A stretch of 64,000 bases of DNA from an uncultured Nitrospiraceae bacterium (GTDB lineage: Bacteria; Nitrospirota; Thermodesulfovibrionia; Thermodesulfovibrionales; Dissulfurispiraceae). A model generated the notes under the pieces. The model made no database searches, was not told the origin of the DNA, and saw only the letters and a program-made list of their open reading frames with translations. This document shows, piece after piece, positions 25,742-46,233 of this stretch. Every line of letters begins with the position of its first letter. Position 1 is the stretch's first letter. The DNA is taken from assembly GCA_963705105.1 (NCBI GenBank), contig CAVPIW010000006.1, forward strand, positions 352,001-416,000, in the 5' to 3' direction. The position numbers were made by a program, and so were the translations under genes.

Positions 25742-26365
25742 TCATGGTTCGCTCAGAGATGCATTCAGTATGTATGAAGCGCCCCTGTAAAAATCATCCC
25801 CGGCCGAACCGATCACCTTTTCGACAAAAAGGGGAACCCACAGAACCATGTGTTTCCTTATGAAATCGCCCCTGATCTCAAAGAGCCGGGATGCCTCCTC
25901 CTGCTGTCCCTCTTCGAAAAGCCGTATCGTCCTCCCCGTAAGATCGCAGACGAATTCAAGCTCTATCCCGATATGGTCGTCAGGAATACTGTATAAGTTC
26001 CTGACCGCCATCCCTGCTTCGAGATACCTTTTTCGCACAGTTACAGTCTCATCCGTCATGAGTGTGCGGGATTCGGAAAGATAGAACGATGAGTAAGGCA
26101 CTGCCGGGGGATTTTTCGGTCCGACAAACAATCGCGCAAATTCAACGGCAAGCTCCTCCGTCCACGCAATCAGCCGCTCTTTGTTTCTGCGTGCGGAATC
26201 GATCATCAATTTCAGGCCGCGGGATATCTCGTCGTCGGCTTCCGGGGGCAGTTCCACTTCGGTGAGGCCTTCGATAATCTCCCGCGACGGTTCCTGTAAA
26301 AAAACCTGCCTTAAAAGATTAAACAAGATGAATTCTTCCTTCAGTTCGTCTATCATGACCGCCAT
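25742..26365 (-). CDS. TorD/DmsD-family molybdoenzyme chaperone
   Basis: F.RLF.GP, PY.S.Y, PDDHIGIELEF, H...W. Confidence 0.9.
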   Translation of the reverse strand: MAVMIDELKEEFILFNLLRQVFLQEPSREIIEGLTEVELPPEADDEISRGLKLMIDSARRNKERLIAWTEELAVEFARLFVGPKNPPAVPYSSFYLSESRTLMTDETVTVRKRYLEAGMAVRNLYSIPDDHIGIELEFVCDLTGRTIRLFEEGQQEEASRLFEIRGDFIRKHMVLWVPLFVEKVIGSAGDDFYRGASYILNASLSEP

Positions 26366-26431
26366 TCCATGAGGCTGAGGGCCAGGGCCTCTGTGTGCCC
26401 CGACCCTCTCTTCATTGCGGGAGCGACTGAT

Positions 26432-29299
26432 CTAAGCCTTCCTGACCTTGACGATCATGTCCGCATAGGCGCTTTGTCCCATAATCGGACTGAGAGCATC
26501 AGGGTCCATCAGGTTGTTGCAGTCAGGCGTATAGTCTCTTGACTTGTATGCCGTGCCGAGGCCGGGACTGAACCTGCCGCCTGAACCGAAGGCTATTTTT
26601 ATGACACCCGGCCTCATGCCGCCTGAGGCGAAGATCTTCCCTTTTGTCGACCTGCCGAGAGGGTTTTCCACGATGACCAGGTCGCCGCTCATTAAACCCA
26701 GCTTTTTCGCATCGTCCGAGTTCATCCATATGGTGCCTACGGAAAAGGTGTTGGCCTTGAATTTCCTCGTGACGGTTTTCATCGGGTCCGCGACGGCAGG
26801 CATTGCCTCCGGCACCTCCGCCTCGAACGCGTTGTTCATCGGCATCCATAGTCCTTCGGCCTTCACTTCGCCGAGCCAGGGAATCATCTGCGTGCCCGTC
26901 ATGGAATGGTGAATTCTACCGGTGATAAGCTGAAAAGGATAATCTTTTGCATACTTCTTGAATTCGGGATTCGTGTAAGGATTCCAAAGGGTCTCGAACC
27001 AATAGAAGGTCTCCGGGAACTTGCCGAACCCGATCCTTTTCAGGCCGTACGGCACTTCGCCGCCGGCTTTTTCGATAAGCTCGTTGTATTTCGCATATCT
27101 GCCCCTGCGCTTGTCGCCGTCCGTATAGTCCCACTTGAACTCAATGAGTTTTGAGTCCGTCGGCGGCCAAATCTTATGCGGCTCGTCCGCATTCTGTTTT
27201 TTGTACCTCCGCCAGCTCATGGGCCATACGGCAACGCCGTGATTCTTCCTCAACCAGGCGGGAGTGACCTGCTCTCCGACGACCTCCTTTTTCTCATGAT
27301 CGATTTTCACGTTACCTTTTTCAAGGGACTCGGGAGTTCCCCTGAGTGTGTATCCCTCGGGATACTGCGGGTACGGCAGAGGAGTCCCGATGTTCGGCTT
27401 GCCCGGTGTCCCCAGGATCAGGTCGGTGGCAAAAGTGTCCTCGTCCTTGTATCTCTCCCAGAAGTCACCCGGTTTTATATCCCTGTCGCCGAGTTCGTGG
27501 AGCTTCTTTGCGAGGAGATTCATGATCTCCGTCGGGTTCTTCGATTCATGAAGCGGCTTGATGACGGCATCCCTGAGATAGCCGAGCGGCATGGGCGGAT
27601 AAATATCGGACCAGCTCACCCTTTCGGCATAACTCGCCTCGGGAAGGATTACATCGGCATAAAGAGCGCTTTCGAGATTGAGCGTATCCACGAAGACCAT
27701 GAGGTCGAGCGTGTAGTTGCCCGCCGCATCTTTTGCGGTCAGGGCCTCCCTCCATTTCCATGTGGCGGAGCCGCTGACCACGGTGTTTCCCGTCCTCAGG
27801 ATGTAAGCCTTTATCGGATATTTGTGGCCCCTGAATGCCCCGTACCGTATCTGCACCTCTTTTCCCGCAAAAAACTCGGGGTAATCGCCGACCACATCGT
27901 CCCACGCCGCGGGATACTTGCTGCCGAAGTGGTCTTTGTTCAGTTCGGACTGCTTGCCTTCGACCTCTTTGCCGTCTATAGCGCGTTTTACTTTCCTGTC
28001 GACGAACTTCTTATCTTGAACAAAAGAAAATTCTCTTCCCTTGCCGCCCTTGCCCCATTTCATGATCTCGCAGTCGATCACGCCGCCGGGGGCGTCGAAA
28101 TTCCCGGTGACCACATTCAACGCAACACCCAGTATGGAACCGACATACCCGTTGAAGTGGTGTCCGGGTGACTGCATGCCCCACACAAGGGCCGCCGGCT
28201 TGGTAATGCCGAAAGTGTGTGCGAGTTCGGCGATATCGTTTTTCGAAAGGCCGGCCCTCTCTGAAGCCCAATCGAGGTTGAAGTAGTTCAAGCCGTTGAC
28301 AGGGTCTTTCTTCTGCCACCATGATCTGAAGGCCCCCTCGAATTCATCCCATCCCTTCGAATATTTCTTGAAGCTCCAGTCGATGTATTTCTTGTTCGCA
28401 TCTGCCTGATTGTCGTTTTCGAGGATATAACGAAGCATTGCCGCGAAAATGTCGTTGTCAGTTCCCGGCCGGGGCGCGATCCACTTGTCCGCAAGGGCGG
28501 CGGTGTTGGAATAGCTCGGGTCTATGACGTAGTACCTGCATCCGTTCTCGACCCTCGCGCCAACCGTTCCCCTGTTCTCGTACATGATACGCGTCGCCAC
28601 AAAGGGGTTCCAGCCGCAGTAGACGATAAGCTTTGTTTTATAGGACATGTCCTTTTTCAGGCTGCCGTCGGGTTGCCTCACGTAAACCGGTCGCATCAGA
28701 TCAGGCTCCCAACGTTTGCCGCCGACGATGAGTTTCGGCCCGTGCCTTCTCGGAGTGTCGCATATGGAACCGTGTTCCACGACATTGGGCGTTCCGAAAG
28801 CGAAGAAAAGCCTCCAGTACTGGTCTCTGTCCGTCACATCTCCGGTATCCATGATGACCGATTCCGGTCCATACTTCTTTTTTATCTCCGCCAGCTTCTT
28901 TCCGATATAGTCTACAGCCTCATCCCAGGTTACCCTTTTGAATTTGCCCTCTCCCCGGGCGCCGACCCTGATCATCGGGTACTTCAGCCTGTCGGGGGAA
29001 TAGATGAGTTGCTGTCCCGAAGCGCCTTTTGCGCAGACAATGCCGTCGTTGAAAGGGACATGCGGATTGCCGTAAATTTTATGTATCTTGCCGTCCCTGA
29101 CCCAGAACTCAAGGCCGCACTCACTGGGGCACATGCAGTCGGCGCTGTATTTGACTTCGTATTTTCCCATCTCCTTTTGCATTGCTTCGGCCTCTGACGG
29201 GGAAAGATGTTTCAGGGACAGGAGGCCGGTCTTGTTCAGCGCTGTGATGCCTGCCAACGCTCCGCTGTATTTCAGGAATACCCGTCTCGATACCTGCAT
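26432..29299 (-). CDS. Tat-exported Mo/W-bisPGD oxidoreductase catalytic subunit (Psr/Arr/Anr-like)
   Basis: SRRVFLK, DCMCPSEC..CAKG FS0 motif, RLKYP, HGSIC (Cys ligand), ADVILP, C-terminal molydop-binding domain. Confidence 0.88.
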   Translation of the reverse strand: MQVSRRVFLKYSGALAGITALNKTGLLSLKHLSPSEAEAMQKEMGKYEVKYSADCMCPSECGLEFWVRDGKIHKIYGNPHVPFNDGIVCAKGASGQQLIYSPDRLKYPMIRVGARGEGKFKRVTWDEAVDYIGKKLAEIKKKYGPESVIMDTGDVTDRDQYWRLFFAFGTPNVVEHGSICDTPRRHGPKLIVGGKRWEPDLMRPVYVRQPDGSLKKDMSYKTKLIVYCGWNPFVATRIMYENRGTVGARVENGCRYYVIDPSYSNTAALADKWIAPRPGTDNDIFAAMLRYILENDNQADANKKYIDWSFKKYSKGWDEFEGAFRSWWQKKDPVNGLNYFNLDWASERAGLSKNDIAELAHTFGITKPAALVWGMQSPGHHFNGYVGSILGVALNVVTGNFDAPGGVIDCEIMKWGKGGKGREFSFVQDKKFVDRKVKRAIDGKEVEGKQSELNKDHFGSKYPAAWDDVVGDYPEFFAGKEVQIRYGAFRGHKYPIKAYILRTGNTVVSGSATWKWREALTAKDAAGNYTLDLMVFVDTLNLESALYADVILPEASYAERVSWSDIYPPMPLGYLRDAVIKPLHESKNPTEIMNLLAKKLHELGDRDIKPGDFWERYKDEDTFATDLILGTPGKPNIGTPLPYPQYPEGYTLRGTPESLEKGNVKIDHEKKEVVGEQVTPAWLRKNHGVAVWPMSWRRYKKQNADEPHKIWPPTDSKLIEFKWDYTDGDKRRGRYAKYNELIEKAGGEVPYGLKRIGFGKFPETFYWFETLWNPYTNPEFKKYAKDYPFQLITGRIHHSMTGTQMIPWLGEVKAEGLWMPMNNAFEAEVPEAMPAVADPMKTVTRKFKANTFSVGTIWMNSDDAKKLGLMSGDLVIVENPLGRSTKGKIFASGGMRPGVIKIAFGSGGRFSPGLGTAYKSRDYTPDCNNLMDPDALSPIMGQSAYADMIVKVRKA

Positions 29300-29301
29300 C
29301 G

Positions 29302-29976
29302 TTACACCTCCTCCGTATTGATAGTGCCGTCCGCCGCCTGAAAAACCTCTTTGTCGGGCGCAATAAACGTCGTCAACGGCTTTGTGCCGTATTCAGGATG
29401 CCAGTCCGTCGTTTTTTGGGATGCCTTGAGCTTCGAAACCGCGCTGCCGGGATCGTTCAAATCTCCGAAAGTCCGTGCCCGTCCCATGCAATTGCGGACG
29501 CATGCGGGTTCCTCGATGCCCGCCGCAATCCGGTGGCTGCAATAGTCGCATTTGTCGACCACTCTCAAATCGCCGGCCTTCTTACCCTTCACCTCCGTGA
29601 CGGTTTTCGCGTAAGGCTCCGGATCGTTTCTTACGGGGATGTGCGGATGCATGAACCGGGCGCCGTAAGGACAAGCGCCGACGCACCTTCCGCAGCCGAT
29701 GCACAGATCCCTGTTCACCATGACGACGCTGTCATCCCTCCTGTATGTGGCACCTTTTACAGGACAGGGGACGATACACGGGGGCTCTTCGCACTGATTG
29801 CAGATTTTCGGGAAAAAATGCCTCTTCGGTTTCGGATAATCGCCCACATCGGCAATGTCCACTTTTGACCTGAACCGACCTAAGGGTACAGAGTTTTCCA
29901 TTTTGCAGCTTACCTGGCAGGAAGTGCAGCCGACACACTTCCTCAGGTCCACAAGCAATGCATACTTCTTTGGCAT
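29302..29976 (-). CDS. Four-cluster 4Fe-4S electron-transfer subunit (DmsB/PsrB type)
   Basis: CVGCTSCQVSC, CNQCEEPPC..PCP, CIGCGRCVGACP, KCDYC. Confidence 0.93.
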   Translation of the reverse strand: MPKKYALLVDLRKCVGCTSCQVSCKMENSVPLGRFRSKVDIADVGDYPKPKRHFFPKICNQCEEPPCIVPCPVKGATYRRDDSVVMVNRDLCIGCGRCVGACPYGARFMHPHIPVRNDPEPYAKTVTEVKGKKAGDLRVVDKCDYCSHRIAAGIEEPACVRNCMGRARTFGDLNDPGSAVSKLKASQKTTDWHPEYGTKPLTTFIAPDKEVFQAADGTINTEEV

Positions 29977-30125: not shown

Positions 30126-30917
30126 TCAGGCTGGAATTCTCCTGACTTCCTTTGTGTTATTGAGCGTTTCGGCGAGCACCCGCTCCTCCGTGCTCAGATC
30201 TCCTCTCTGAAACTCCACCCGGAAGGTTTGAGTTATGCACTTTCTTATGGCCGCCTTGAGTTCCGCGGCTTGAACCTCGCGGCCCAGTATTTCGCCCAGT
30301 GACGTGGTCCGAGAGTCGAGATCAGCGAGCAATTCTTCACGGGATGTGATCCCTCGCGCGAGAATCGCCGCCCAGGTCTCGTTCTGCGGCGCCAGGACAA
30401 TCGAGCCGTGCTGCAGCAGGGAGGTCCCCAGCCACGTCTGAGCGCTGCCGACGAATTTCTTCCCCTGGTAGACGATATCACCAACAGCGGAGCGCAAGAA
30501 ACAGACGTCGGCTTGCGGGGACCGGGCGTCTTCGCGACCGAGTTCCGCAGTGACGCCCAGTGAGTGAAAAGCGTCCAGGAGCCCTCCGCAAATAAGCCGG
30601 TAGGCGGCGGTAAGCGAAACCGGAATGCCTTGTCGTGCGCCGGCAATCACGCTGTAGGTGATCTCATGCTGGTGCAGAACCGCCCTCCCTCCCGTAATGC
30701 GCCGGACGATATCAATTCCGGCACTCCGACAAGCAGCCAGATCAAGGGAGTGCTTTTTCTGAAAATAACCGAGGGTGACGGCAGCCGGTCTCCACTGGCT
30801 GAAGCGCAGCGTCGGCGGCGACTCACCCCGCGCATGCAGCCGCAGGAGGGCCTCGTCGACGGCCATGTTGAGCGAGCCCGGCAAGGCTCCGGAGTCCAGC
30901 AGCCGCCACGTACTCAC
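30126..30917 (-). CDS. Lipoate-protein ligase / octanoyltransferase (LplA/LipM family)
   Basis: NMAVDE, RRITGGRAVLH, KFVGSAQ, QHGS. Confidence 0.9.
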   Translation of the reverse strand: MSTWRLLDSGALPGSLNMAVDEALLRLHARGESPPTLRFSQWRPAAVTLGYFQKKHSLDLAACRSAGIDIVRRITGGRAVLHQHEITYSVIAGARQGIPVSLTAAYRLICGGLLDAFHSLGVTAELGREDARSPQADVCFLRSAVGDIVYQGKKFVGSAQTWLGTSLLQHGSIVLAPQNETWAAILARGITSREELLADLDSRTTSLGEILGREVQAAELKAAIRKCITQTFRVEFQRGDLSTEERVLAETLNNTKEVRRIPA

Positions 30918-31840
30918 GGCATCTCCTCAAAAAAACCCTTTGCCTTGTAGGAACTTCGCACCAGAGGACCTGCAGCAACGCTTCTGAATCCCAGCGCACG
31001 AGCCTCTTCACTCCACCGCTGAAACTCCTCTGCGGTGACGTAGCGCCGGACCGGAGCGTGAGCCAGGGAAGGCGCCAGGTACTGGCCGAGGGTCACCATG
31101 TTACAGCCTGCCCCTGCAAGATCCCGCAAAACTGCCTCAATCTCCTCTTCCGTCTCTCCCAGTCCGAGCATCAGGCCCGATTTGACGACAATGTGCGGCG
31201 CCCTTTCCTTCGCCTGCCTGAGCAAAGAGAGCGACCGGGCATAATCGGCCCCCTGTCTCACCTCCCGGTAGAGCCTGGGGACCGTCTCAAGGTTGTGAGC
31301 CAGAATCTCCGGAGAAGCCGACAGCACCGTCGTCAGGGCCTCCTGCGCCCCCGCGAAATCAGGCACGAGCAGCTCGGCTTTCACCTTTGGGCACAGCAGC
31401 CGCAGGGCATGCACCACCTGCGCGTAATGGCCGCTGCCGCCGTCGGGGAGATCGTCCCGGGTAACCGACGTCACGACCACGTGGGCGAGGTGGAGCTCCG
31501 ACACCGCATGTGCCAGACGCAGAGGCTCATCACTATCGGGAGGTCCGCAGGGGCGGCCGTGGGCAACGGCGCAGAAGGCGCACCTCCGGGTGCAGACATC
31601 CCCGAGGATCAGAAAAGTCGCCGTATGGTGCGAATAGCATTCTCCCCGGTTGGGACATCGGGCGCCGTCGCACACCGTTTTCAGGCGCAGGTGCGCCAGC
31701 AGCGAGCTTGTCTTTTCGATTGTATCGTTGCCGGCGCCCCTCTTGGCCCGGCGAATCTCCGTCATCAGTTTTTCAGGGACCGGTGCGCTTTTCATCAGAG
31801 ACTCCGGAATACGCCGTTTTCTCTTTTTTTCCGGCGACAA
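30914..31840 (-). CDS. lipA: Lipoyl synthase
   Basis: C-x4-C-x5-C plus radical SAM CTRRCAFC, HNLETV, RSSY. Confidence 0.95.
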   Translation of the reverse strand: MSPEKKRKRRIPESLMKSAPVPEKLMTEIRRAKRGAGNDTIEKTSSLLAHLRLKTVCDGARCPNRGECYSHHTATFLILGDVCTRRCAFCAVAHGRPCGPPDSDEPLRLAHAVSELHLAHVVVTSVTRDDLPDGGSGHYAQVVHALRLLCPKVKAELLVPDFAGAQEALTTVLSASPEILAHNLETVPRLYREVRQGADYARSLSLLRQAKERAPHIVVKSGLMLGLGETEEEIEAVLRDLAGAGCNMVTLGQYLAPSLAHAPVRRYVTAEEFQRWSEEARALGFRSVAAGPLVRSSYKAKGFFEEMP

Positions 31841-31855
31841 GTGTGTTTCGTCTTC

Positions 31856-33250
31856 CTATGCAGACTCCCTGACGGGGGGTACATGGATAGCTTGTCCGTG
31901 CAGCATCTGGGCGACCTCCAGCAGCGATTCCGACAGTGTCGGATGGGCGTGGATGGTCTCCATGATGGTCTGCGCGGGCAGTTCCGCACGCATGGCCACG
32001 GCAACTTCCGCGATGAGATCTGCGCCGTGAGGGCCGATAATGTGGGCTCCGAGGATCTGGTCCGTTTCTTTATGAACGATGATCTTCACCATCCCTTCGA
32101 GCTCGCCCATGGCCTGAGCCATGCCGAGGGACTTGAGCGGAAAACGGCCGACTTTGACGGGATATGCCGCTCCTGCCTCCTCTTCGGACATTCCAACCGC
32201 GGCATACTCCGGCAGGCTGAACACACAGCGGGGCACGACACGATAGTCCATTTTGCTGCCGAGCCCGAGCGCATGTTCGGCGGCGCAGATCCCCTCCGCA
32301 AATGCCACATGGGCCAGCAGCCAGCCGCCGATCACGTCGCCGGCGGCATAGATCTCCGGATTGCCTGTCCGCATATGCCCGTCGACCACGATCCGGCCAC
32401 GGTCCATGGCCACACCGAGTTCTTCCAGACCGATCCCCTCAGTGTTGAAGCGCCTGCCGACGGCCAGCAGTATAGTGTCCGGCGCAAGCTGCGTCCCGTC
32501 CGAAAGCCGCACGGCAAAGCCTTCCCCAGTTTCGTCCACGGACTCGACCGTTACGCTGCACTGGACCTTTATCTTGCGCCTCGTCAGGAGAGTGAGCAGA
32601 TATGCGGCGATCTCGCTGTCTTCGGAAGGCAGAATGCGATCGAGAGCCTCGATGAGTGTCACCTGGCTGCCCAGTTCCCGGAAAATGGCGGCCATCTCCA
32701 CACCTACGGCGCCTGCCCCGACGACCAGGAGCTGTCCGGGGATATACGAGATATCGAGCATCTGGTCGGCCAGGAAGATCCGGGGGGTCGTAGGAAATAC
32801 CGGAAGACCGGCAGGATGCGAGCCCGTGCAGACGACAACCTTTGACGCCTTGACGAGGGCCGTTTCTCCACCCCGTTTGATTTCGATTGCGCCGGTCCCG
32901 GACAGTCGGCCACGACCCTCGACCAGTTCGATGCGGTGAGCCTGAAACAGCCTTTCGATACCTTTTCGCAGCCCCGTCACCACCCGCCGCTTTCTGGCGA
33001 TGATGGCTTCAATATCCGGAACCGCATCAACGGCCTTGAAACCGTATTCCTGCGCTCGCCGCAGAGCCCGGCCCGCTTCGGCAGAGGCGCGCACCGTCTT
33101 GGTCGGGATGCAGCCCCAGTTAAGGCACACCCCGCCCACATACTTTTCCTCAATGACCGCAACTCTGGCGCCCAACTGAGCCGCCCGGACGGCGCCCTGG
33201 TAACCGGCCGGCCCGCCTCCCAGAAAGGCAATGTCGTATTTTTCTTGCAT
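31856..33250 (-). CDS. lpdA: Dihydrolipoamide dehydrogenase
   Basis: GGGPAG, GGVCLNWGCIPTK, GAGAVG.E, HAHPTLSE. Confidence 0.94.
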   Translation of the reverse strand: MQEKYDIAFLGGGPAGYQGAVRAAQLGARVAVIEEKYVGGVCLNWGCIPTKTVRASAEAGRALRRAQEYGFKAVDAVPDIEAIIARKRRVVTGLRKGIERLFQAHRIELVEGRGRLSGTGAIEIKRGGETALVKASKVVVCTGSHPAGLPVFPTTPRIFLADQMLDISYIPGQLLVVGAGAVGVEMAAIFRELGSQVTLIEALDRILPSEDSEIAAYLLTLLTRRKIKVQCSVTVESVDETGEGFAVRLSDGTQLAPDTILLAVGRRFNTEGIGLEELGVAMDRGRIVVDGHMRTGNPEIYAAGDVIGGWLLAHVAFAEGICAAEHALGLGSKMDYRVVPRCVFSLPEYAAVGMSEEEAGAAYPVKVGRFPLKSLGMAQAMGELEGMVKIIVHKETDQILGAHIIGPHGADLIAEVAVAMRAELPAQTIMETIHAHPTLSESLLEVAQMLHGQAIHVPPVRESA

Positions 33251-33266
33251 GAGCCTCCCTCCCTTC

Positions 33267-33490
33267 ACCTTATCGTTGCAGCACACTGCCAGGAAAGGCG
33301 GGGCTGGGGTGAATGCGCCGAAAACCTTGCTGCGGCGACACCTGTATCAAAACAAAAGACGAACTATAAGCCTATGGTTGATGACACAAAGAGTGGAGTC
33401 CTGAAACACGAAGCTGATGATGCGTATCGTCGCCTTCGGCAAGGCTTTGAGGCGCTTCGCCCCGCCTTTTCATGCAACCAGGGTTTACCC
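33267..33490 (+). repeat. Repeat family 1, copy 5 (subtype A), between osmC and lpdA
   Basis: Near-identical to 61465-61687; abuts the lpdA SD. Confidence 0.95.
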
Positions 33491-33588
33491 TTACAGGAAG
33501 GGTTCTTCCCCCCGGAGGGACGGAGAGAGGTAAAATTTTTTTTCTCCGGACACCCCGTGCTCTCCCGGGTGAAGCGCTTTGTTTCGTA

Positions 33589-34035
33589 CTAATGTCCCGC
33601 CTCAGATTCCCCGCTCTCGATCACAATGGTCGGCTCAATGACAAGGTCGCACTTGAGCGATTGGTTGATCGTCGAATACTTCAGCGACAGGTCAAGGGCA
33701 CGCTGGACGACTTCCCGCGGTTTGTTCTTCACCACAAGTTTGGGATAGAGAGTCACCCTCTTGAACCAGGACGTCTTGTCGATGAATTCCTCGACCTCGC
33801 CCTCGGCGTCGCACACGAAAGAGATCATGTCGATCTTGAACCGCTCCACGGCCCAGATGACCATCATATGGTAGCACATATTGGAAGCCGCCATGAAGGC
33901 ATCTTCAGGGGTGAGTATATCGGGTAGGCCGTGAAGATCGGGAGGAGCCGAAAAACCCATCTCGACACCGTTCTGGCACCATGTGTGCCCGAGGTGTTCA
34001 CCTCGCCATTCCACTTTATTCCTGTAAACCGGCAT
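33589..34035 (-). CDS. OsmC/Ohr-family protein with the resolving Cys replaced by Ser
   Basis: G....TPE..F.A....C; C-terminal KYSTINQSL where KYC.I..SL is expected. Confidence 0.8.
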   Translation of the reverse strand: MPVYRNKVEWRGEHLGHTWCQNGVEMGFSAPPDLHGLPDILTPEDAFMAASNMCYHMMVIWAVERFKIDMISFVCDAEGEVEEFIDKTSWFKRVTLYPKLVVKNKPREVVQRALDLSLKYSTINQSLKCDLVIEPTIVIESGESEAGH

Positions 34036-34047
34036 CTGCTTCTCCTT

Positions 34048-34458
34048 TTACTCGCTCAGAATGTCATCGACCGCCCTGGCGATTTCTTCCGCCACCACCT
34101 GTGCGGCGGCCTTCTCCTCCGGCCGAAGGTTGCGCAGGCTGGTCGGCGGGTCAATCCCGTGCTTTTTCAAGATTTCGGGAATGACCAGGGAGCGGGCGGG
34201 TTTACCCGAAAGCTTTTCGGTGCCCTTTTGGGCGCAGAGCTTTTCGCAGCCGTCCACTGTGATGGTTGGGTAGTTGGCGGCGAACTCGCGCTCTTCCTTG
34301 CCTCCTGCGATAAACAGGGGGAGGCAGATAGTCACCGTTTCGCCGGGCCTCAACTCTTCCAGCACCTGGCGGCATGCCAGGCGAGACAGCGTCCCCCCGG
34401 GAATCGCCTCGCCGCTGCACGAAACGATACCGACCTTGAGAACTTCGAGAGTCATCAT
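34048..34458 (-). CDS. DGC-domain putative Zn-binding protein
   Basis: CSG, C, T.DGC..LCA. Confidence 0.85.
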   Translation of the reverse strand: MMTLEVLKVGIVSCSGEAIPGGTLSRLACRQVLEELRPGETVTICLPLFIAGGKEEREFAANYPTITVDGCEKLCAQKGTEKLSGKPARSLVIPEILKKHGIDPPTSLRNLRPEEKAAAQVVAEEIARAVDDILSE

Positions 34459-34871
34459 GCATCCTCCCCGGCAGCCAGATCGTCCACGACGCTCGCCAGT
34501 TCATCGGCCGCCAACGCAGCAAGTCGGTGTCCGACGTCATCCAGCTCGGCGATGCCGCCTGGTTTGAGATCCTTGTGCGCTTTGTAAAAGTTGATTGCCT
34601 GGTACGTTCTGGCGGCTTTCACGCCGTGAGCCTCGACGCTCTTTCGGGCACAGCTCTTGGGACAACCGTCAATGGTCATCACGGGGTTGTCCGAGATCAG
34701 GCGTATCGCCTCGGGGTCCTCGATCACCAGGAGCGGCAGGCAGGTGGTGGCTACAACGCCGGGTCTTACCCGGTCCACCAGCTCATAGGTCGTCTCCCTG
34801 GCCAGCGCCCCGTAGACTTTGCCGATGCCGCTGCAGGGGAGGACCACGACCTTCTTGGTTATTCCGGTCAT
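34455..34871 (-). CDS. DGC-domain putative Zn-binding protein
   Basis: PCSGIG, CL, IDGCPKSCA. Confidence 0.85.
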   Translation of the reverse strand: MTGITKKVVVLPCSGIGKVYGALARETTYELVDRVRPGVVATTCLPLLVIEDPEAIRLISDNPVMTIDGCPKSCARKSVEAHGVKAARTYQAINFYKAHKDLKPGGIAELDDVGHRLAALAADELASVVDDLAAGEDA

Positions 34872-35318
34872 TTTTTCTTCATCTCCTCGGCGATTTTTTC
34901 CTTCATCAGTTCGAGATAGTCTTCCGCCTGAAGCAGGTTTCTGCCGTCGGTCCCCAAATCGTCAAGCCGGATTTTATAAATCCAGCCGGCGCCGTAAGGA
35001 TCTTCGTTGATCAGATAGGGGCTTGATTCCAGTTCCTGGTTGACGTCGACCACCCTGCCCGAGACGGGCGCCAGAATCCCGAAAGTAGCCTTGATAGTCT
35101 CGATTTTTCCAAGTTCCTGGCCCTGTTTCACGTCCGTTTCTTTTTCGGCTGTTTCCAGAAAAGCGACGTCGCCTCTGGCCTTCTGGAGAAAATCTGCTCA
35201 CACCGACCGTCGCTACATTGTCCTCAACCCTGGCCCAGAAATCATCACGGCTGTAAAAATAGCCCTGTTTCACCCGGAAGACGAATTTGTCGTATGTCGT
35301 TTCAAGAAAATCACTCAT
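34868..35318 (-). pseudogene. gcvH: Glycine-cleavage H-like lipoyl carrier with +1 frameshift near 35195 (pseudogene or sequencing error)
   Basis: ..W.RVE..VATVGVS|DFLQK..GDV.. restored by removing one base; lipoyl Lys in ETIKAT; APVSG, N.DPYG.GW. Confidence 0.85.
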
Positions 35319-35332
35319 AGACCCGCTCCTTT

Positions 35333-35674
35333 TCACGCTGTCAGGATCTTCCCGACTTCCTTCAGGATCTTGCTCACCTGGATGCTTCCCGCAAACCTCG
35401 GTTCGCCGTCGATGACGACAAGAGGAGGAGGGAATTTCCGGCTCACCAGCAGACGCCCGGCCTCCGTTTCCTTTTCTTCCGGCGAGTTGCTCAAGTCGAT
35501 CAGCTCCGTGGCGGTCTTCCCCGGATAGCGCGCCTCAAGTGTCTCTTTTAGCTCGGTGCACTTTTGCAGAAGGGCCTTTGCGTATTCCGGGCCGCGTGGC
35601 GTGGAACTGCAGGTGCAGCCGCCCCCAACGCCGGGCAGATCAAGGATTTTCACTGTAATGAAGTTCTTGGCCAT
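35333..35674 (-). CDS. Small thioredoxin-like hypothetical protein with CxC
   Basis: GGGCTC near the N-terminus, PLVVIDG; SD GGAGG. Confidence 0.65.
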   Translation of the reverse strand: MAKNFITVKILDLPGVGGGCTCSSTPRGPEYAKALLQKCTELKETLEARYPGKTATELIDLSNSPEEKETEAGRLLVSRKFPPPLVVIDGEPRFAGSIQVSKILKEVGKILTA

Positions 35675-35703: not shown

Positions 35704-36048
35704 TTAAAAGCCCAGGGGCTCCCAGGATTTGAAGATGTTCACCTCGTCGCCGGGATTCGGTAGGCCGGCAATCTTCCAGGCCTTCACGGGGTCCATGAAG
35801 TTTTCCGTCACGCAGTTGCCGGGCTGATGGATGTTCTTGCAGACGGCGCGCAGGATCGGGAAGAATTTGTGCTCACGATAGTAGGAGCGGATGAACGTCA
35901 GGATGTCCAGGCTGTCCTTAGACAGCCTCCCGATGCCCTCGCGGCCTGCCAGCACTGCTGCAACCTTTTCGTTCCATTCCTCGAAATTGACGAGGAAGCC
36001 CGCATCATCGACTTCGATCTTTTTTCCTTCAGCCTCAATAATTGCCAT
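35704..36048 (-). CDS. DsrC/TusE-family protein lacking the C-terminal cysteine(s)
   Basis: D..GFL....WN..VA..LA..EG, KIAGLP.P; ends WEPLGF. Confidence 0.85.
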   Translation of the reverse strand: MAIIEAEGKKIEVDDAGFLVNFEEWNEKVAAVLAGREGIGRLSKDSLDILTFIRSYYREHKFFPILRAVCKNIHQPGNCVTENFMDPVKAWKIAGLPNPGDEVNIFKSWEPLGF

Positions 36049-36083
36049 GTCTCAACCTCCTGATACGACGCGTTGTCCTGTTT

Positions 36084-37019
36084 TTATGTCAGTATGCCCC
36101 TGACGATAATGTCCACCGCCTCCTCGGGTGTCAGTCCGTGGGCCATGAGGGTTTCCATCTGCCTCTTGTCGACGCTCCCGATGGCCGCCTCGTGGGTCAC
36201 CTTTGCAAGCGGATTTGTAACGGTAACGATGGGGATGGCTTTTGCCACGGCCCTGTCCCTGACGATCTCCATGCAGTCCACATGACCCCTGGACCCCGCG
36301 GCCCTGCCCTCGGTAATCCCCGTGATTTCGGCGACGGCGTCATTTTCGAGAGCCACCCTTGTCTTGATGAGGCTCCGCGCGTTGACGCCTGATAGAATTA
36401 CTTCCTCCCGAATTATGATGCGGTCATCGGCATGGCCGAAGACCCGTGCCGTCATCTCGACGATGCTCTCATCATCCAGTTCGACCCTGTAATCGATGTC
36501 GAGATGTCCGACCCTTCCGGTGATGAGCGAGAAGTCGCTCGTATACCTGGCCCTGGAACGGACCCGCACCCTCGCTTTTGGAATGACGTGGACCCCGCCG
36601 TAGGGCCCATGGAAATGGGCCTCCGTGTATTTCATCTCAGCGCCGTCCCCGACGTCGACGTCCCCGTCCATCAGGTGTGTGACCCTCTTCGCCGCCGGGA
36701 AGAAGCAATGGGCGACGAAATGAGCGGACGATCCCCGTTCGAGGCGGATCTTCGGGATGATCCTTTGCATACCTTCTTTGTGGAGAACACCGAAACAGAG
36801 GTGAACGGGATTTTCGATCCTGACGTTTTCCCGGACCGTCACATCGGCCGATATGCCGTCGGCCAGCGTCTCTGTCCTGACGACGAGGCCTTCAACGGTC
36901 CGGGCGCTGAGTATCTTATTCCCGTCGGCGACGAGATGGGCCACCCTCTCATTTCCGAAGACGGTCCTGTCCTCCCCCGATTTCTGGAGGGCCTTCAGAA
37001 AATGCTCGATCTTAGACAT
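36084..37019 (-). CDS. sufB: SufB/SufD-like subunit (minimal SUF, SmsB)
   Basis: PVHLCFG, RGHVDC.EIV, VTHEAAIGSVD. Confidence 0.85.
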   Translation of the reverse strand: MSKIEHFLKALQKSGEDRTVFGNERVAHLVADGNKILSARTVEGLVVRTETLADGISADVTVRENVRIENPVHLCFGVLHKEGMQRIIPKIRLERGSSAHFVAHCFFPAAKRVTHLMDGDVDVGDGAEMKYTEAHFHGPYGGVHVIPKARVRVRSRARYTSDFSLITGRVGHLDIDYRVELDDESIVEMTARVFGHADDRIIIREEVILSGVNARSLIKTRVALENDAVAEITGITEGRAAGSRGHVDCMEIVRDRAVAKAIPIVTVTNPLAKVTHEAAIGSVDKRQMETLMAHGLTPEEAVDIIVRGILT

Positions 37020-37728
37020 ACACGCACTCCTGCCCAGTACAGATGAGACACTGTCGCGATTTGTAGAACTCGGCCACCTTGAGGGGATTCCCGGTGCAGA
37101 TGATCTTTCCTCCGCAGATCTGCGAGGCCCTGTCGGCGATCCTCACGATCTCCTCCCTGTGAGTGATGAGGAGGACCGATGAGCCCTTGTCCCGGAAGGC
37201 CCGGAGTACATGAAGGATGTCTCCCGTCGAGAGCATGTCGATGCCGGAATCGGGCTCGTCAAGAACCGCCAGGCGCGGCTGCAATGCAAAGATTGACGCC
37301 AGTTCGATTCTCTTTCTCTCTCCGCCGCTCAGGCACTTGTCGACCATTCTGTTGAGGTAGAGAGCGGGGTGGAGACCCACAATCTCGAGGGCCTCATCCG
37401 GATCGACGTCCTCCCTCCCGAGAGAGAGGTAATTGCCGACTGTGATGCCCTCGAACCGTGCCGGCTCCTGCCACGCCATGGTAATGCCGAGTTTCGCCCG
37501 CTCGCTGATCGTAAGGTCGTTGATCACATGCCCGTCGAAGAGAATCTCTCCGCTATCGGGCTTGTAGCCCTCGCAGCCCATGATGAGGTATGCCACGGTG
37601 CTCTTTCCCGTCCCGTTCGTCCCGAGGAGGGCGTGAATCTCACCCTGCTCGACGGTAAGATCAAAACCGTCAAGGATTTTCCTGGTTCCGGCGGTAAATG
37701 TGAGATCTCGCAAATCGAGTAACTGCAT
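37012..37728 (-). CDS. sufC: SufC-like ABC ATPase with C-terminal Cys motif (SmsC)
   Basis: GTNGTGKST, LSGGERKR, DEPDSG, C-terminal CLIC....C. Confidence 0.85.
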   Translation of the reverse strand: MQLLDLRDLTFTAGTRKILDGFDLTVEQGEIHALLGTNGTGKSTVAYLIMGCEGYKPDSGEILFDGHVINDLTISERAKLGITMAWQEPARFEGITVGNYLSLGREDVDPDEALEIVGLHPALYLNRMVDKCLSGGERKRIELASIFALQPRLAVLDEPDSGIDMLSTGDILHVLRAFRDKGSSVLLITHREEIVRIADRASQICGGKIICTGNPLKVAEFYKSRQCLICTGQECVYV

Positions 37729-37744
37729 TGTCCCTCTCCCGCTC

Positions 37745-40850: not shown

Positions 40851-41227
40851 AGCCCGGCCTTTTTCAGCACAGGGACGATGTCCTCGTAGGGATAATAACC
40901 AAAATGGCGGTGGAACTCCTTGCCCTTCTTATCGAGGAAAACCTGTGTCGGTATCATGAAGACCTGGTATTTCCTGCCCGCTTCCCTGTCCACCTTCACA
41001 TCGATAAAAAGGACGTCCAGTTTTCCCTGATACTGCTTCGAGAGCTTGTCCATCACCGGCTTCATCTGCTCGCAGGGAATGCAGCCCACTGACCCGAGCT
41101 CGAGCATCACCATCCTGCCTTCCTTCTGGGCCTTCTTCAGGGTGTCATCGAGCTTCGCCGCTTCCCCCTGCGTTATCAGGAGCAGGACGCAAAACGCCAT
41201 GAAGAGGCCCGACAGCAATCTGTTCAT
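40847..41227 (-). CDS. Exported thioredoxin
   Basis: Signal peptide, CIPC, IPTQVF. Confidence 0.88.
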   Translation of the reverse strand: MNRLLSGLFMAFCVLLLITQGEAAKLDDTLKKAQKEGRMVMLELGSVGCIPCEQMKPVMDKLSKQYQGKLDVLFIDVKVDREAGRKYQVFMIPTQVFLDKKGKEFHRHFGYYPYEDIVPVLKKAGL

Positions 41228-41928
41228 TCCTTTATGCCACCTTTCTTCGCTTTTTCCGCGGCTTTTTTTCTGATCATTTCCATCTTCTCCAAGAAGGCAT
41301 TTTTTGTCCGCCGCTCTTCCTCGTCCTTCGGTTCGAACACGGGGTTCGTCACCCTCCAGGTGATCCGCGCACTGACCGGACCCTCAGGGTATGCCCCCAC
41401 GTCGTACAATGAATAGTCATCAAAAGGGGTGGCGGTCTCCTGGTAGCAGGACCAGACGGCCTTCCGGAGGATGTCGGGAGTTCCTTTGTTCAGGAGGTCC
41501 ACGACCTGCAGGATCTGATGCCGGAATCTCTCGACAAACTCCTCCGGCAGGTTGAAGAGATAGGGAGTCGGCGCAGAGGTTCCGACTATTTTTTTCCTTT
41601 TATCGATACCGTTTTTGACGAGGGAGATGATGGCCTCGCCCGTCGAGTGCCCCGGCGATTCCGGGCCTGTCACGATGAGATAACGGATGTTGGGGTTGCC
41701 GATGATGTTGCAGATCATCTTTTCGACGCCTATGTTTTCCGTCTGTATCGTGCCCGAAAGGGCCGCCCCCGATTCCACGCCCACCCTGACAAGCTCCTCG
41801 ATATCCTTCGGGATTTTGTCGTAGTCATAGATGAGCACGACGGCGACGGCGACGGGCGAAAAGTCGTTTCCTCTAAGATAATGGCCTTCTTCGGGGGGAT
41901 AGTCTGCGACCGGTTCGATTTTGAGCAT
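41224..41928 (-). CDS. MtrA/MtxA-like corrinoid-binding protein
   Basis: YPP.EG.Y..G...SPVAV, TENIG.EK...N...NPNIRYL...G.E..GH.TG, I.G...P.P.L.NL....VERFR.Q. Confidence 0.85.
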   Translation of the reverse strand: MLKIEPVADYPPEEGHYLRGNDFSPVAVAVVLIYDYDKIPKDIEELVRVGVESGAALSGTIQTENIGVEKMICNIIGNPNIRYLIVTGPESPGHSTGEAIISLVKNGIDKRKKIVGTSAPTPYLFNLPEEFVERFRHQILQVVDLLNKGTPDILRKAVWSCYQETATPFDDYSLYDVGAYPEGPVSARITWRVTNPVFEPKDEEERRTKNAFLEKMEMIRKKAAEKAKKGGIKE

Positions 41929-41943
41929 TATTTCCTCCCTCTG

Positions 41944-43020
41944 TCACAGGGGTTTTGAATTGCTTACCCGGCAATACTGAATAGTGAAGTATTTTTTCTG
42001 GAAATAAAGCGCCACGTTGACGAGGCCGATCAGGACCGGCACCTCCACGAGGGGTCCGATGACGGCTGCGAAGGCCGCCCCGGAATGGATGCCGAACACG
42101 GCCACGGCGACGGCGATGGCGAGCTCGAAGTTGTTGCTTGCCGCTGTGAAGGAGAGGGTGGCCGATTTTTCGTAATCCGTCTTCAGCTTGTAACTCATAT
42201 AGAAGGAGACGAGGAACATGACGACGAAATAGATGAGAAGAGGTATGGCGATGCGAACGACATCCAGTGGCAGCTTTACGATGTAGTTGCCCTTGAGGGA
42301 AAACATGACGACGATCGTGAAAAGGAGGAAGAGGAGCGTCAGAGGGCTGATCCTGGGAATGAAGACCCGGTCGTACCACTGACGGTCTTTGATCCGGATG
42401 AGGCTGAAACGGGTGATCATGCCCGCGATGAAGGGGATGCCGAGATAGATGAAGACGCTCTCGGCGATCTGGCCTATGGTGATATTGACAATCGTCCCCT
42501 TGAGTCCGAACCAGGAGGGCAGGACGGTGATGAATATATAGGCGTAGACGGAATAGAAGAGCACCTGGAATATGGAGTTGAAGGCGACGAGCCCCGCCGC
42601 GTATTCGGGGTCTCCGCAGGCAAGGTCGTTCCAGACGATGACCATGGCGATGCAACGCGCCAGACCGATCATGATGAGACCTACCATATACTCGGGGTGA
42701 TCGGGCAGGAAGACGACGGCGAGAATAAACATCAATATCGGCCCGATGACCCAGTTCTGGAGCAGGGACAGTCCGAGCACCTTCTTGTTCCTGAAGACTT
42801 CACCCAGCTCCTCGTACTTCACCTTGGCGAGGGGCGGGTACATCATGAGGATCAGGCCGAGCGCGATGGGGATGTTCGTCGTGCCCACCTGAAAGCGGTT
42901 CCAGAAGTCGGCGATCTGGGGATAGAGGTATCCCGAGCCGACGCCGACGGCCATGGCGAGAAATATCCAAAGCGTGAGAAACCTGTCGAGGAAGGAGAGT
43001 CTCTTAACTGTTGCCGCCAT
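41944..43020 (-). CDS. acr3: ACR3-family arsenite/antimonite efflux transporter
   Basis: [44 protein letters not shown]. Confidence 0.96.
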
Positions 43021-43429
43021 TTGTTGCGCTCCTTTGCACACTGTTCTTAGAACAGGAACCGACGTTATCGACAGATTGAGATGGCGCCGCGCAGACCTTC
43101 CCTTGCGGTTTGCTCATGATGAACCCACGCAGTCTTTCGTTGTCTTTCAGGATAACGTCGCCGGCGAGGCGTTCAAGGACAGAAAGCATGAGGAACCTCT
43201 TGAAGAGATCCGATTCGTCAATGCGGTAGTGGATCCACCTTCCCTGTTTCCTATCTATGATGAGACCCGCATCTTTGAGAACACTCAGATGAAAGGATAC
43301 TTTCGGCTGCACCAGGTCGAGGGCGGTGAATATGTCACAGACACAGAGCTCCCCGCATTCAAGCAGCTTGAGGATTCTCAGGCGCGTCTCGTCCGAGAGG
43401 GCCTTCAGTATGCTCAGTACCTGCTGCAT
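43004..43429 (-). CDS. arsR: ArsR/SmtB repressor
   Basis: [18 protein letters not shown] As(III)-binding motif, S.HL..LK.AG. Confidence 0.93.
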
Positions 43430-43433: not shown

Positions 43434-43673
43434 TCAGGCCTCGGATTGAATGAGGGTTTTCACCTTCTCGATGGTCGGAAGGGGCTTGCCGCTGTGTTTC
43501 AGCTTTCCGTTCACCACGAGTCCCGGCGTCGACATGGTGTACTTCATGATTTCTTTGAGGTCCGTTATCTTTTCGATATTCGCGTCGATGCCGAGGTCTT
43601 TGACGGCTTGGAGGGCTAATTCCTCCATCTTGTGGCAGTTTGCGCATCCAGGTCCCAAAACCTTGATTTCCAT
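43434..43673 (-). CDS. Small redox-active disulfide protein (Thioredoxin_3/MTH895 type)
   Basis: IKVLGPGCANC, STPGLVVNG. Confidence 0.9.
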   Translation of the reverse strand: MEIKVLGPGCANCHKMEELALQAVKDLGIDANIEKITDLKEIMKYTMSTPGLVVNGKLKHSGKPLPTIEKVKTLIQSEA

Positions 43674-43768: not shown

Positions 43769-44719
43769 CTACAGTATAGCGTTGAACAGATATCCCACAG
43801 ATATGATCGTGATGGTCATGATACCGACAAAGACGGCCAGAAGGGGCACCTTCAGCACCTTTCTCAGGATGATCATCTCCGGGAGTGAAAGGGCCGTCAC
43901 TGCCATCATGAAGGCCAGGACCGTCCCCATGCTCATGCCTTTTCCCATGAGGGCGTACACGATGGGGATCACTCCTGCCGCGTTCGAGTAGAGCGGCACG
44001 CCGAGGGCAACCGCAATAGGCACGGCAAAGGGATTCTGCGGTCCCGCGTAGCGGGTCAGGAAATCCTGGGGCACATAGCCGTGGATGAAGCCCCCGATGC
44101 CGATGGCGATGACGATGAAGAGCCAGACCCGCTTGAGGATATCGGCGGTATTCAGCTTTGCATACTCGATCCTCTCACGGAAGGCCGGTTTCTCGATTTC
44201 CTGTTCCTGTCCCGATTTGAATTCATAGACGTATTCCTCGACCCACTTTTCGAGTTTGAGCTTGCCGATGACGAAGCCCCCGAAAACGGCGACGAGGAGG
44301 CCGGTGCCGATATAGATGGCAGTGACCTTCCACCCGAAGAGCCCCCAGAGGAGCACAATGGCCACCTCATTCACCATCGGAGAGGATATGAGGAATGACA
44401 GCGTCACGCCGAGGGGAACACCCGCCTCGACAAACCCGATGAAGAGGGGGACTGCCGAGCAGGAACAGAAAGGGGTGACGATGCCAAGCAGGGCAGCGAG
44501 GATGTTACCGATAAACTGTTTTTTATGAGAGAGGATCTTTTTCGTCCTCTCCGGGGGGAAATAGCTCCTGATTATGGAGACGCAGAATATGATGACCGAC
44601 AGGAGAAGGAAAATCTTCAGGGTGTCATAGATGAAGAAATCAAGGGCATCTCCGAGGGGTGAGCCCTTTTGAAGGTTCAGGAGGTCGAAGGTGACATAGG
44701 CTGCGAATTCTTTCAGCAC
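43769..44719 (-). CDS. arsP: ArsP-family (DUF318) organoarsenical permease
   Basis: TPFCSCS.VP, SP.VNE, GVPLY, LSLPE. Confidence 0.88.
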   Translation of the reverse strand: MLKEFAAYVTFDLLNLQKGSPLGDALDFFIYDTLKIFLLLSVIIFCVSIIRSYFPPERTKKILSHKKQFIGNILAALLGIVTPFCSCSAVPLFIGFVEAGVPLGVTLSFLISSPMVNEVAIVLLWGLFGWKVTAIYIGTGLLVAVFGGFVIGKLKLEKWVEEYVYEFKSGQEQEIEKPAFRERIEYAKLNTADILKRVWLFIVIAIGIGGFIHGYVPQDFLTRYAGPQNPFAVPIAVALGVPLYSNAAGVIPIVYALMGKGMSMGTVLAFMMAVTALSLPEMIILRKVLKVPLLAVFVGIMTITIISVGYLFNAIL

Positions 44720-44735: not shown

Positions 44736-44782
44736 ATATAAAATCTTGTTTATATATTAAGGCATCTCATTCCTGATGTCAA
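44736..44782 (-). promoter_or_regulatory. Sigma70 promoter of the ars cluster with a palindromic candidate ArsR operator
   Basis: Minus strand TTGACA-17-TAATAT; perfect ATATAAA-N6-TTTATAT at 44736-44755 overlapping -10/+1. Confidence 0.7.
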
Positions 44783-44799: not shown

Positions 44800-45002
44800 A
44801 CCCAACAGTTGCATGAAAAGGCGGGGCGAAGCGCCTCAAAGCCTTGGTGAAGGCGACGATGAGCATTATCAGGTTTGTTTTCAGGAATACGCTCGGTATG
44901 CATTCGACCATCGGTTTGAACCGTCGTCTTCTGTAACGGTTATGGTGTCGCCGCACCAAGGTTTTCGGCGCATACACCCCGCCTTTTCTGAGTGCGCATT
45001 GC
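44800..45002 (-). repeat. Repeat family 1, copy 6 (subtype A2)
   Basis: Both arms carry CCTTGGTG/CACCAAGG instead of CCTTGCTG/CAGCAAGG. Confidence 0.93.
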
Positions 45003-46006: not shown

Positions 46007-46061
46007 GGTATCCTCCTTTTGCTGACGCCAGCACGGTCACAGAAGCGTTGACATCTTGATA

Positions 46062-46087
46062 ATCACGATTATAAAATAAATCGTGAT
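46062..46087. promoter_or_regulatory. Candidate TunR operator upstream of the TSUP gene
   Basis: Perfect ATCACGATT-N8-AATCGTGAT palindrome between divergent TSUP and tunR. Confidence 0.65.
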
Positions 46088-46233
46088 AGTTCATTATATC
46101 AGCGGTCTGGCGCGATGTCAAGATTTCTCGTCCCCGTATTGCATTCGGTGAAACTTGTATGCACAATTACAGGAAGGATCATTGGTGTCCAAAATAATGT
46201 GTCACGAGGACAGGGCATGATTTCTTCGCATAA

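Follow-up and report, generated by a model that had tools for sequence, protein, structure and literature searches.

What would a set of genes for making and recharging a lipoyl carrier be doing in an arsenic resistance (ars) gene run? Lipoate is a textbook target of arsenite. The question is raised by a 64,000-nucleotide stretch of DNA from an uncultured Nitrospiraceae bacterium (the window, to which all coordinates refer), where eight minus-strand genes at 30126-35674 encode a GcvH-type lipoyl carrier, a ligase, lipoyl synthase (LipA), dihydrolipoyl dehydrogenase (Lpd), an OsmC-fold protein, two DGC-domain proteins and a CxC-motif protein. Open reading frame (ORF) and family scans confirmed this clustering, which a preliminary description of the locus had reported in full. 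The module closes a co-directional run that opens with arsP, a gene for an ArsE-like thioredoxin, arsR and acr3; the shared direction claimed earlier stood, and the module is not adjacent to acr3 but separated from it, on the downstream side, by a distance of 6.3 kb and seven genes. We argue that this ars-linked lipoyl cassette is real, conserved and apparently undescribed and that, judged from its genes, it could be an ArsR-controlled relay in which NADH, Lpd and a lipoyl arm supply reductant for arsenic handling, a reading that we think might equally well prove right or wrong. Loci are numbered Lnnn, genomes Gnnn (G000 being that of the window) and sequencing runs Xn; an asterisk (GcvH*, OsmC*) denotes a module-type protein.

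Chance does not account for the module, whose gene order is found again across 108 loci. These comprise 16 on genome contigs found with DGCb as query (and hence containing DGC by construction), the best 80 of at least 539 metagenome matches to an OsmC* alignment, and 12 regions taken from genomes, 11 of them from phylum samples and one a second copy in G303. L150, a duplicate of L031, was excluded from the counts, and at 90% OsmC identity the loci form 66 clusters. A DGC gene sits directly upstream of osmC* in 89 of the 90 scorable loci (54/55 after de-duplication at 90%), a second DGC gene is present in 79/81 (47/48 de-duplicated), and gcvH lies upstream of osmC* in every one of 69 scorable loci (43/43 de-duplicated). 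Lpd accompanies this core in 40 of 64 loci and lipA in 30 of 48, with lpd, lipA and the ligase gene together in 29/48. The conserved unit is thus gcvH*-DGC-DGC-osmC*, to which lpd, lipA and the ligase gene are optional additions, and the window holds the fullest form; the term self-contained, used in the preliminary description, suits the window and only part of the family.

The module is also rare and patchy. Module-type OsmC was absent from 300 other genomes of the window's phylum, where 35 weak matches (63-79 bits) were judged generic without inspection, and was present in 7/400 and 4/400 genomes of two more phylum samples. Named hosts include Syntrophobacteraceae, Syntrophales, Desulfomonilaceae, Geobacteraceae, Pelotomaculum, Desulfovirgula and Dehalococcoidia, and the module contigs of L115, L133 and L141 carry archaeal marker genes.

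Linkage to arsenic genes was scored by counting acr3, arsA, arsD, arsM, arsC, arsP and arsF as arsenic-specific. At least one of these genes was found in 39 of the 50 loci having 8 kb or more of flanking sequence (30/36 de-duplicated), and acr3 itself in 26 of the 30 loci with at least 12 kb (22/25 de-duplicated). An arsR gene lies upstream in 29 of the 36 loci with at least 6 kb of upstream sequence, at 1.1 kb or less from gcvH in 13/51, and a CVC or CAC motif is present in 26 of the 45 nearest ArsR proteins. The ArsR of the window has an ELCVCD motif, which we take to be the As(III) site. An internal control was provided by 16 whole genomes, in which acr3 lay within 15 kb of 12 of the 17 module gcvH copies versus none of the 27 other gcvH copies; the five module copies lacking a nearby acr3 sit on short contigs or contig ends.

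The module is separate from glycine cleavage and from the 2-oxoacid dehydrogenases. No GcvP, GcvT, E1 or E2 family member was found in the 175 representative neighbour ORFs scanned (of 417 unassigned). This result and the tight ars linkage speak against a pattern that the preliminary description had considered, a module that usually travels with gcvPT or 2-oxoacid dehydrogenase genes away from ars. Its statement that there is no dehydrogenase partner holds for the locus but not for the genome, as G000 (99.4% complete) has distant, unlinked E1 and E2 genes, with no GcvP or GcvT scoring over cut-off. G000 also holds a second gcvH beside a second lpd, plus a second lipA and a second ligase gene, all apart from the module, and so by gene content the module is a duplicate, dedicated lipoyl set. 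INDEPENDENCE from central metabolism is also seen in the carrier itself: the module GcvH sequences group on a branch apart (41 rows, against 18 of other GcvH from the same genomes; support 100/98), and the lipoyl lysine is kept in 63/63 sequences. The scores of full-length relatives fall slightly short of the gcvH cut-offs. GcvP is encoded in 6 of the 16 carrier genomes, each time beside another gcvH, and is not found in the other 10; E2 is present in eight and not found in the other eight, some of the genomes being incomplete. In G302, G480, G921 and G989 the module gcvH and lipA are the only copies in the genome, and searches of these four, whose completeness is not stated, turned up neither GcvP nor GcvT nor E2; G989 is a single 2.4-Mb contig, where the sole Biotin_lipoyl match lies in a 676-amino-acid frame. 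Taken together, the neighbour scan, the gene content of the carrier genomes and the separate GcvH branch led us to reject the module as an orphan piece of glycine cleavage or pyruvate dehydrogenase (PDH).

The OsmC-fold protein has lost a hallmark of its family. Its AlphaFold2 model is confident (predicted local distance difference test, pLDDT, 93.5) and Foldseek matched it to 2onf (E 1.6e-12, template modelling score 0.78). C54 and E44 are present in 96/96 aligned sequences and another cysteine, C75, in 81/96, but the resolving cysteine of 2onf aligns to serine, as it does in 57/57 and 95/95 sequences of two alignments. According to the accessible text of PMC5384416, the Ohr/OsmC hallmark is a resolving cysteine about 60 residues downstream of the first, loss of which abolished the activity of MfOhr, and catalytic arginines occupy loops that we mapped from the description given there: no conserved arginine was found in the beta1-beta2 (Ohr) or beta3-alpha1 (OsmC) loop of OsmC*, where His14 is kept in 56/57 and position 11 is a mixture of K, R and T. 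The canonical Arg and Glu are also missing from TvOsmC, the Trichomonas vaginalis protein (same portion of PMC5384416). By the criteria of that paper, OsmC* would not be a standard Ohr/OsmC peroxidase because the resolving cysteine is missing. Sequences of the one-Cys type are numerous (of 8,000 candidates scored, 5,925 clusters reach an E of 1e-30 or better), not all of them necessarily module members.

DGCa and DGCb each have four near-invariant cysteines in the alignments, where the CX5R spacing is absent. The DGC model is a confident alpha/beta structure (pLDDT 90) whose top structural matches, led by the E1 beta/transketolase C-terminal domain at Z 8.5, do not rise above the level usual for common folds; arsenate reductase ArsC (2l17) ranks 21st at Z 6.9 (root mean square deviation 3.0, 104 residues aligned), below unrelated folds at Z 8.5. 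The inspected Lpd-like genes have C-termini of Lpd type, not MerA type. The ligase consists of the catalytic domain only and scores under all NCBIfam cut-offs; it is LipM-like or split-LplA-like, with Thermoplasma LplA subunit 1 as its best solved match, and the Cys...GKK motif that we take to be LipM-like was matched in 19 cases out of 30.

The best Protein Data Bank profile match of the CxC protein is a thioredoxin. Comparison with ArsD gave an hhalign probability of 59% (E 9e-5) that fell to 1.5% with a smaller alignment; VcpD scored 20.5 bits against a cut-off of 90, and membership of an Atlas ArsD cluster (0.85) is a lead only. We describe the protein as apparently thioredoxin-like, with a weak ArsD/DUF1462 likeness. 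The copy in the window has cysteine at the motif, whereas an in-frame TGA stands there in 15 of the 19 relatives of short type, with an ATG and ribosome binding site (RBS) placing the start 19-21 codons upstream (L027, L028, L030, L096, L097, L099, L100, L103, L104, L106, L109, L111, L147, L151 and L154); the TGA truncates these homologues in ORF calls. A selA gene scoring over cut-off is present in all four TGA-form genomes tested (G302, G305, G541, G921) and in the Cys-form genome G919. Hairpins form after the UGA, with z-scores of only -1.6 to +1.5 in a check for selenocysteine insertion sequences. The CxC relatives are thus likely to be a candidate selenoprotein family in which TGA is read as selenocysteine (Sec), and no in-frame Sec was found in the alignments of DGC, OsmC* or GcvH*. 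The accessible selenoprotein table of PMC13188914 has no matching entry; its 'Thioredoxin-like Sec.1/Sec.2' families share the CxU/UxC motif, a likeness at the level of the motif.

Given these parts, the relay that we propose would run as follows. The ligase and LipA would lipoylate GcvH*, as expected from the protein families, the lipoyl lysine and known LipA and ligase chemistry. NADH would reduce Lpd, which would in turn recharge the lipoyl arm on GcvH*, the family being assigned and the direction of electron flow assumed. GcvH* would dock on OsmC*, as a weak prediction suggests, so that the dihydrolipoyl dithiol would take the place of the missing resolving cysteine. C54 of OsmC* and the four-cysteine DGC proteins would accept a pentavalent or thiol-bound arsenical, or antimony, and release the trivalent form; wherever cysteines of OsmC* and the DGC pair carry arsenic or become oxidised, they would be resolved by the dihydrolipoyl arm. 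Finally, the ArsD-like Cys/Sec protein might hand the product to Acr3, ArsP or ArsM. Such a relay would do with lipoate what the thioredoxin/glutaredoxin arm does in arsenic detoxification, and the presence of Lpd in the majority of scored loci fits redox turnover. The NADH-LpdA-lipoyl relay suggested in the preliminary description thus remains the natural reading, with a precedent in Trichomonas to the extent of the accessible literature, while its peroxide branch is weakened by the lack of a resolving cysteine and a catalytic arginine; its decoy branch offers no reason for the retention of Lpd immediately behind osmC in 40 of 64 loci.

We also hold a more specific version to be possible although doubtful: one-Cys OsmC* and a DGC heterodimer would together act on arsenicals beyond the reach of ArsC (methyl- or thioarsenates, Sb(V), protein-bound arsenic) as a reductase, or a stripping enzyme, that is resolved by the lipoyl arm, fed from NADH through a private H protein and aided by the unlisted Cys/Sec ArsD-like protein. 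It would be a further class of lipoate-dependent system and, in some genomes, the sole use of lipoate.

For the docking step of the relay itself, complex prediction on the L016 proteins (GcvH*, both DGC proteins and OsmC* as a dimer) gave a score of 0.49 versus 0.12 for the best control (OsmC replaced), with contacts agreeing by at least 76% between runs and partner pLDDT of at least 88. At a level of this type 18 of 157 solved complexes passed, as did both of the passing mismatches among the 215 scored, and hence the prediction hints only weakly at docking of GcvH* on OsmC*, since a call at this level is more often wrong than right unless the complex was likely beforehand.

Several observations weigh against the relay. 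Dihydrolipoamide binds trivalent arsenicals tightly (PMC7072575, accessible part), and such binding could poison the relay. The DGC model had no Foldseek match at E 1e-3, and the structural search gave no functional clue. Lpd is absent from 24/64 loci and lipA from 18/48; no lipA match was found by genome search in G764 or G639, where GcvH* could be lipoylated only through salvage or by some other route. Genes resembling arsC (at E 1e-30 or better, yet none reaching the curated cut-off) occur in 11 of 17 genomes including G000, where the gene sits on another contig. The module is therefore not simply a missing arsenate reductase and plain arsenate would not be its sole purpose, and we found no support for the module as an ArsC replacement. 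The CVC/CAC motif is lacking from 19 of the 45 nearest ArsRs; 11 of the 50 long loci have no arsenic-specific gene, several of them being short on one side, and L025 has none despite about 10 kb on both sides. The mercury methylation gene hgcA lies within a few kb of the module in six loci (L021-L024, L031 and L091). Finally, the loci are related to one another and were chosen as best matches, and thus the counts are not independent.

The same facts bear on other explanations. Dihydrolipoyl-GcvH* might capture As(III) or methylarsenite by forming a cyclic dithioarsinite and so spare the lipoyl enzymes of the cell, with DGC and the CxC protein stripping off the arsenic and delivering it to Acr3 or ArsP and Lpd serving only to keep the arm reduced. 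The affinity of dihydrolipoamide for trivalent arsenicals reported in the accessible part of PMC7072575, the weak ArsD likeness of the CxC protein, the four invariant cysteines of both DGC proteins and the loci without Lpd would all suit such capture and hand-off, but in several hosts the genome encodes no further lipoyl enzyme that could be spared, a stoichiometric trap hardly warrants the expense of building a lipoyl arm, and the invariant one-Cys OsmC* is left without a role; we consider this unlikely. Quite unlikely, in our judgement, is peroxide or general thiol repair under arsenic stress by a Trichomonas-like L protein, H protein and OsmC peroxidase that is co-regulated by ArsR and does no direct arsenic chemistry. 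The three components correspond to those of T. vaginalis, Hyphomicrobium denitrificans has a gcvH-osmC pair (both from the accessible text of the papers cited below), the OsmC fold is confirmed and TvOsmC also does without the canonical Arg and Glu; however, the resolving cysteine, loss of which abolished MfOhr activity (PMC5384416, accessible text), is serine in all aligned members, the DGC pair and the Sec/Cys protein go unexplained, and the named hosts are syntrophs and relatives of sulfate reducers.

A broader role is possible because hgcA adjoins six loci: a system for other metals or metalloids and organometals, or for sulfur transfer (Hg, Sb, thioarsenates), might ride in ars islands with arsenite as one inducer among others. 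Heavy-metal ATPase and cation-efflux genes adjoin the module in a few loci, the ArsRs without CVC/CAC fit as well, and the lipoyl carriers of the sHdr-LbpA system handle sulfane sulfur, according to the accessible text of bioRxiv 2026.10.01.755906. We give this role a slim chance: acr3 dominates among the long-flank loci, the Lpd-like proteins inspected lack the MerA-type C-terminus, and the TusE/DsrC-like and molybdoenzyme neighbours in the window are not conserved. Lipoate resupply would be very improbable. The ligase, GcvH and LipA of the module match the LipM-GcvH-LipA route of lipoylation and, as a scaffold of the Bacillus type, might re-lipoylate PDH or glycine cleavage enzymes poisoned by arsenic; G000 has its distant E1 and E2. 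Half of the carrier genomes, some incomplete, show no E2 and a majority no GcvP, however, and the invariant core is gcvH-DGC-DGC-osmC, in which lipA and the ligase gene have no fixed place.

The reductant relay was read from a locus whose features are collected in Table 1. The lpd start is an ATG with an RBS at 33250, in an ORF open from 33286.

Table 1 Features of the module and of its ars context, in window coordinates
Feature	Position	Strand	Basis
Lipoate ligase/octanoyltransferase family, catalytic domain only, 263 amino acids	30126..30917	-	PF21948
Lipoyl synthase LipA, both Cys motifs and RSSY	30914..31840	-	TIGR00510, 360 bits (cut-off 310)
Dihydrolipoyl dehydrogenase Lpd, CLNWGC disulfide, HPTLSE	31856..33250	-	TIGR01350, 482 bits (cut-off 409)
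Dispersed repeat of 196 bp between osmC and lpd, outside the module	33283..33478	.	genome repeat search
OsmC-fold protein OsmC*; C54 and Glu44 invariant, Ser121 at the resolving-Cys site, His14 in the beta1-beta2 loop	33589..34035	-	
DGC-domain protein b (DGCb), four invariant Cys, predicted flavodoxin-like alpha/beta fold with no obvious structural relative	34048..34458	-	PF08859 and model
DGC-domain protein a (DGCa), four invariant Cys	34455..34871	-	PF08859
GcvH* lipoyl carrier, N-terminal extension, lipoyl Lys codon 35090-35092, own clade	34868..35336	-	PF01597
CxC protein, thioredoxin-fold, ArsD/DUF1462-like (C20, C22)	35333..35674	-	profile comparisons
Acr3 arsenite efflux permease (context)	41944..43017	-	TIGR00832, 466 bits (cut-off 283)
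ArsR/SmtB repressor, ELCVCD motif (context)	43004..43429	-	family scan
MTH895/ArsE-family thioredoxin-like gene (context)	43434..43673	-	family scan
ArsP_1 permease, head of the gene run (context)	43769..44719	-	family scan
Sigma70-like promoter match, 10/12, upstream of arsP	44754..44782	-	consensus match only

Between acr3 and the module the run contains mtrA-like, thioredoxin, ccdA, 566-amino-acid membrane protein, fmdE, sufC/sufB-like and tusE-like genes. Junction gaps are 35 bp or less throughout from the ArsE-like gene to osmC, and we infer that the run from arsP to the module forms one transcript; a terminator scan gave 19 versus 16.6, not above chance. In most relatives osmC and lpd abut, whereas in the window the gap between them holds a 196-bp repeat, which has 167 near-full-length matches (150 bp or more) in G000 and a predicted hairpin of -81 kcal/mol. 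A regulatory RNA in this gap was rejected: it has no Rfam match and the gap is the dispersed repeat, which may be intron-derived or resemble a miniature inverted-repeat transposable element. Further copies lie near 1297-1469, 44808-44980, 61481-61676 and 63018-63196, and sequences related to its ends are found in numerous contigs from four public runs.

As presented, the window gcvH is split by a +1 frameshift, with an extra base at 35195. Contigs of three runs (X1, X2 and X20) are one base shorter at this position; the X1 contig is near-identical over 1813 bp (2 other letters, 1 gap), and X1 is possibly the source data set of the assembly and hence not independent. The frameshift is probably an assembly error, and a strain variant is also possible. 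A decaying pseudogene is unlikely, since the contigs of three runs are without the extra base and the gcvH genes of relatives are intact. In the RNA run X20, contigs of a relative about 93% alike cover CxC-gcvH, although contigs from an RNA library do not show transcription.

Other genes near the module invite comment. Downstream by 149 bp, at 25742-29976 on the minus strand, are a 4Fe-4S subunit, a 955-amino-acid Tat-type molybdopterin oxidoreductase and a TorD-like chaperone; the oxidoreductase best matches PhsA/PsrA and then ArrA, all under cut-offs, and the B-A-D gene order is one that we take to resemble antimonate reductase clusters. Upstream, at 35704-37731 (minus strand), is a TusE/DsrC-like protein gene whose product lacks the C-terminal cysteine residues, preceded by a SufC/SufB-like pair; SufCB also follows the module in L028, and these genes could supply Fe-S clusters or sulfur to LipA. 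A stand-alone MtrA-like corrinoid protein (41224-41928, minus strand; NF002126 above cut-off) comes directly after acr3, an MtrA-like gene is also found near the module in L116, L132 and L136, and a tie to methyl-arsenic is possible. A link of the module to the downstream molybdoenzyme or to the upstream TusE, SufBC or MtrA genes was rejected, as these neighbours are not conserved beside it. Farther off, a small multiheme cytochrome, a 4Fe-4S subunit and a 1073-amino-acid TtrA-like molybdoenzyme (under all NCBIfam cut-offs) are encoded at 56942-61340 (plus strand) as a further unassigned respiratory enzyme near the ars island, which is flanked at 45029-49020 by a TauE-family exporter, a ModE/TOBE-like ORF and a chromate-transporter-like ORF, labels read from translations only.

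Among the other loci, radical SAM/SPASM genes of a mixed cluster recur near the module (L071, L078, L087, L096, L102, L119, L143-L145, L148, L153), the one in L145 resembling a tungsten-cofactor maturase under cut-off. A small-ORF family without a Pfam or NCBIfam match (L114, L115, L119, L121, L125, L128, L133, L134, L138) sits mostly just after osmC*, and its loci include archaeal-looking contigs. A CMD/AhpD-family gene just upstream of gcvH* in L031, L074 and L174 echoes lipoyl-AhpD relays.

If the relay reading is true, an arsenic-linked cassette equipped to make a lipoyl carrier of its own would turn lipoate from target into reducing tool, and arsenic detoxification would draw on one more source of reductant besides thioredoxin, glutaredoxin and mycothiol. 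The DGC-domain proteins and the large one-Cys OsmC subfamily would gain a first function that can be put to the test, and the CxC relatives may add a selenoprotein family. All parts of the module are small soluble proteins amenable to direct work in vitro. Its carriers are microbes of sediments and soils, in some of which hgcA adjoins the module, and thus the module may bear on the cycling of As, Sb and Hg.

No description of the cassette or of its use in arsenic handling was found in the literature searched, subscription papers and supplements being mostly outside that search, but several known systems share parts of it. The Lpd-DlaT-AhpD-AhpC system of Mycobacterium tuberculosis and the GcvH-L/sirtuin/macrodomain operons employ lipoyl carriers outside the dehydrogenase complexes, with partners that differ from those of the module. 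To our knowledge, neither these systems nor sHdr-LbpA are ars-linked. The accessible account of sHdr-LbpA likewise describes a lipoyl carrier outside dehydrogenase complexes and with other partners, a likeness of arrangement; in systems of this kind, lipoylation genes often accompany the carrier.

Closer in its marker genes is the Pseudodesulfovibrio mercurii ND132 operon arsR5-arsP-arsE-DGC, which is arsenic-induced and places one DGC-domain gene in an ars setting; the accessible text of bioRxiv 2022.10.17.512643 mentions no lipoyl carrier, OsmC or lipoylation genes there. The lipoyl-dependent Ohr/OsmC peroxidases, in the accessible text of PMC5384416, share with OsmC* the fold, the first cysteine, the conserved Glu and a lipoyl reductant, whereas OsmC* has serine for the resolving cysteine, no arginine at the canonical places and a private carrier instead of E2. 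In H. denitrificans a second GcvH-like gene likewise stands beside osmC, and GcvH_1 (Hden_1299) and OsmC (Hden_1301) are a proposed electron donor pair (bioRxiv 2026.10.01.755906), a likeness of gene content; arsenic, Acr3 and DGC are not mentioned in the accessible text of that paper. The nearest functional parallel in composition is the hydrogenosomal system of T. vaginalis, in which L protein, H protein and OsmC detoxify peroxide (Nyvltova et al. 2016, as cited in the accessible text of PMC5384416 and bioRxiv 2026.10.01.755906). There, as in the module, Lpd and a GcvH-type carrier act without P and T proteins on an OsmC-fold acceptor, but, so far as those texts describe the protist system, the module is distinguished by an OsmC* without the resolving cysteine and by being prokaryotic, ars-linked and equipped with its own LipA and ligase, two DGC proteins and a Cys/Sec protein.

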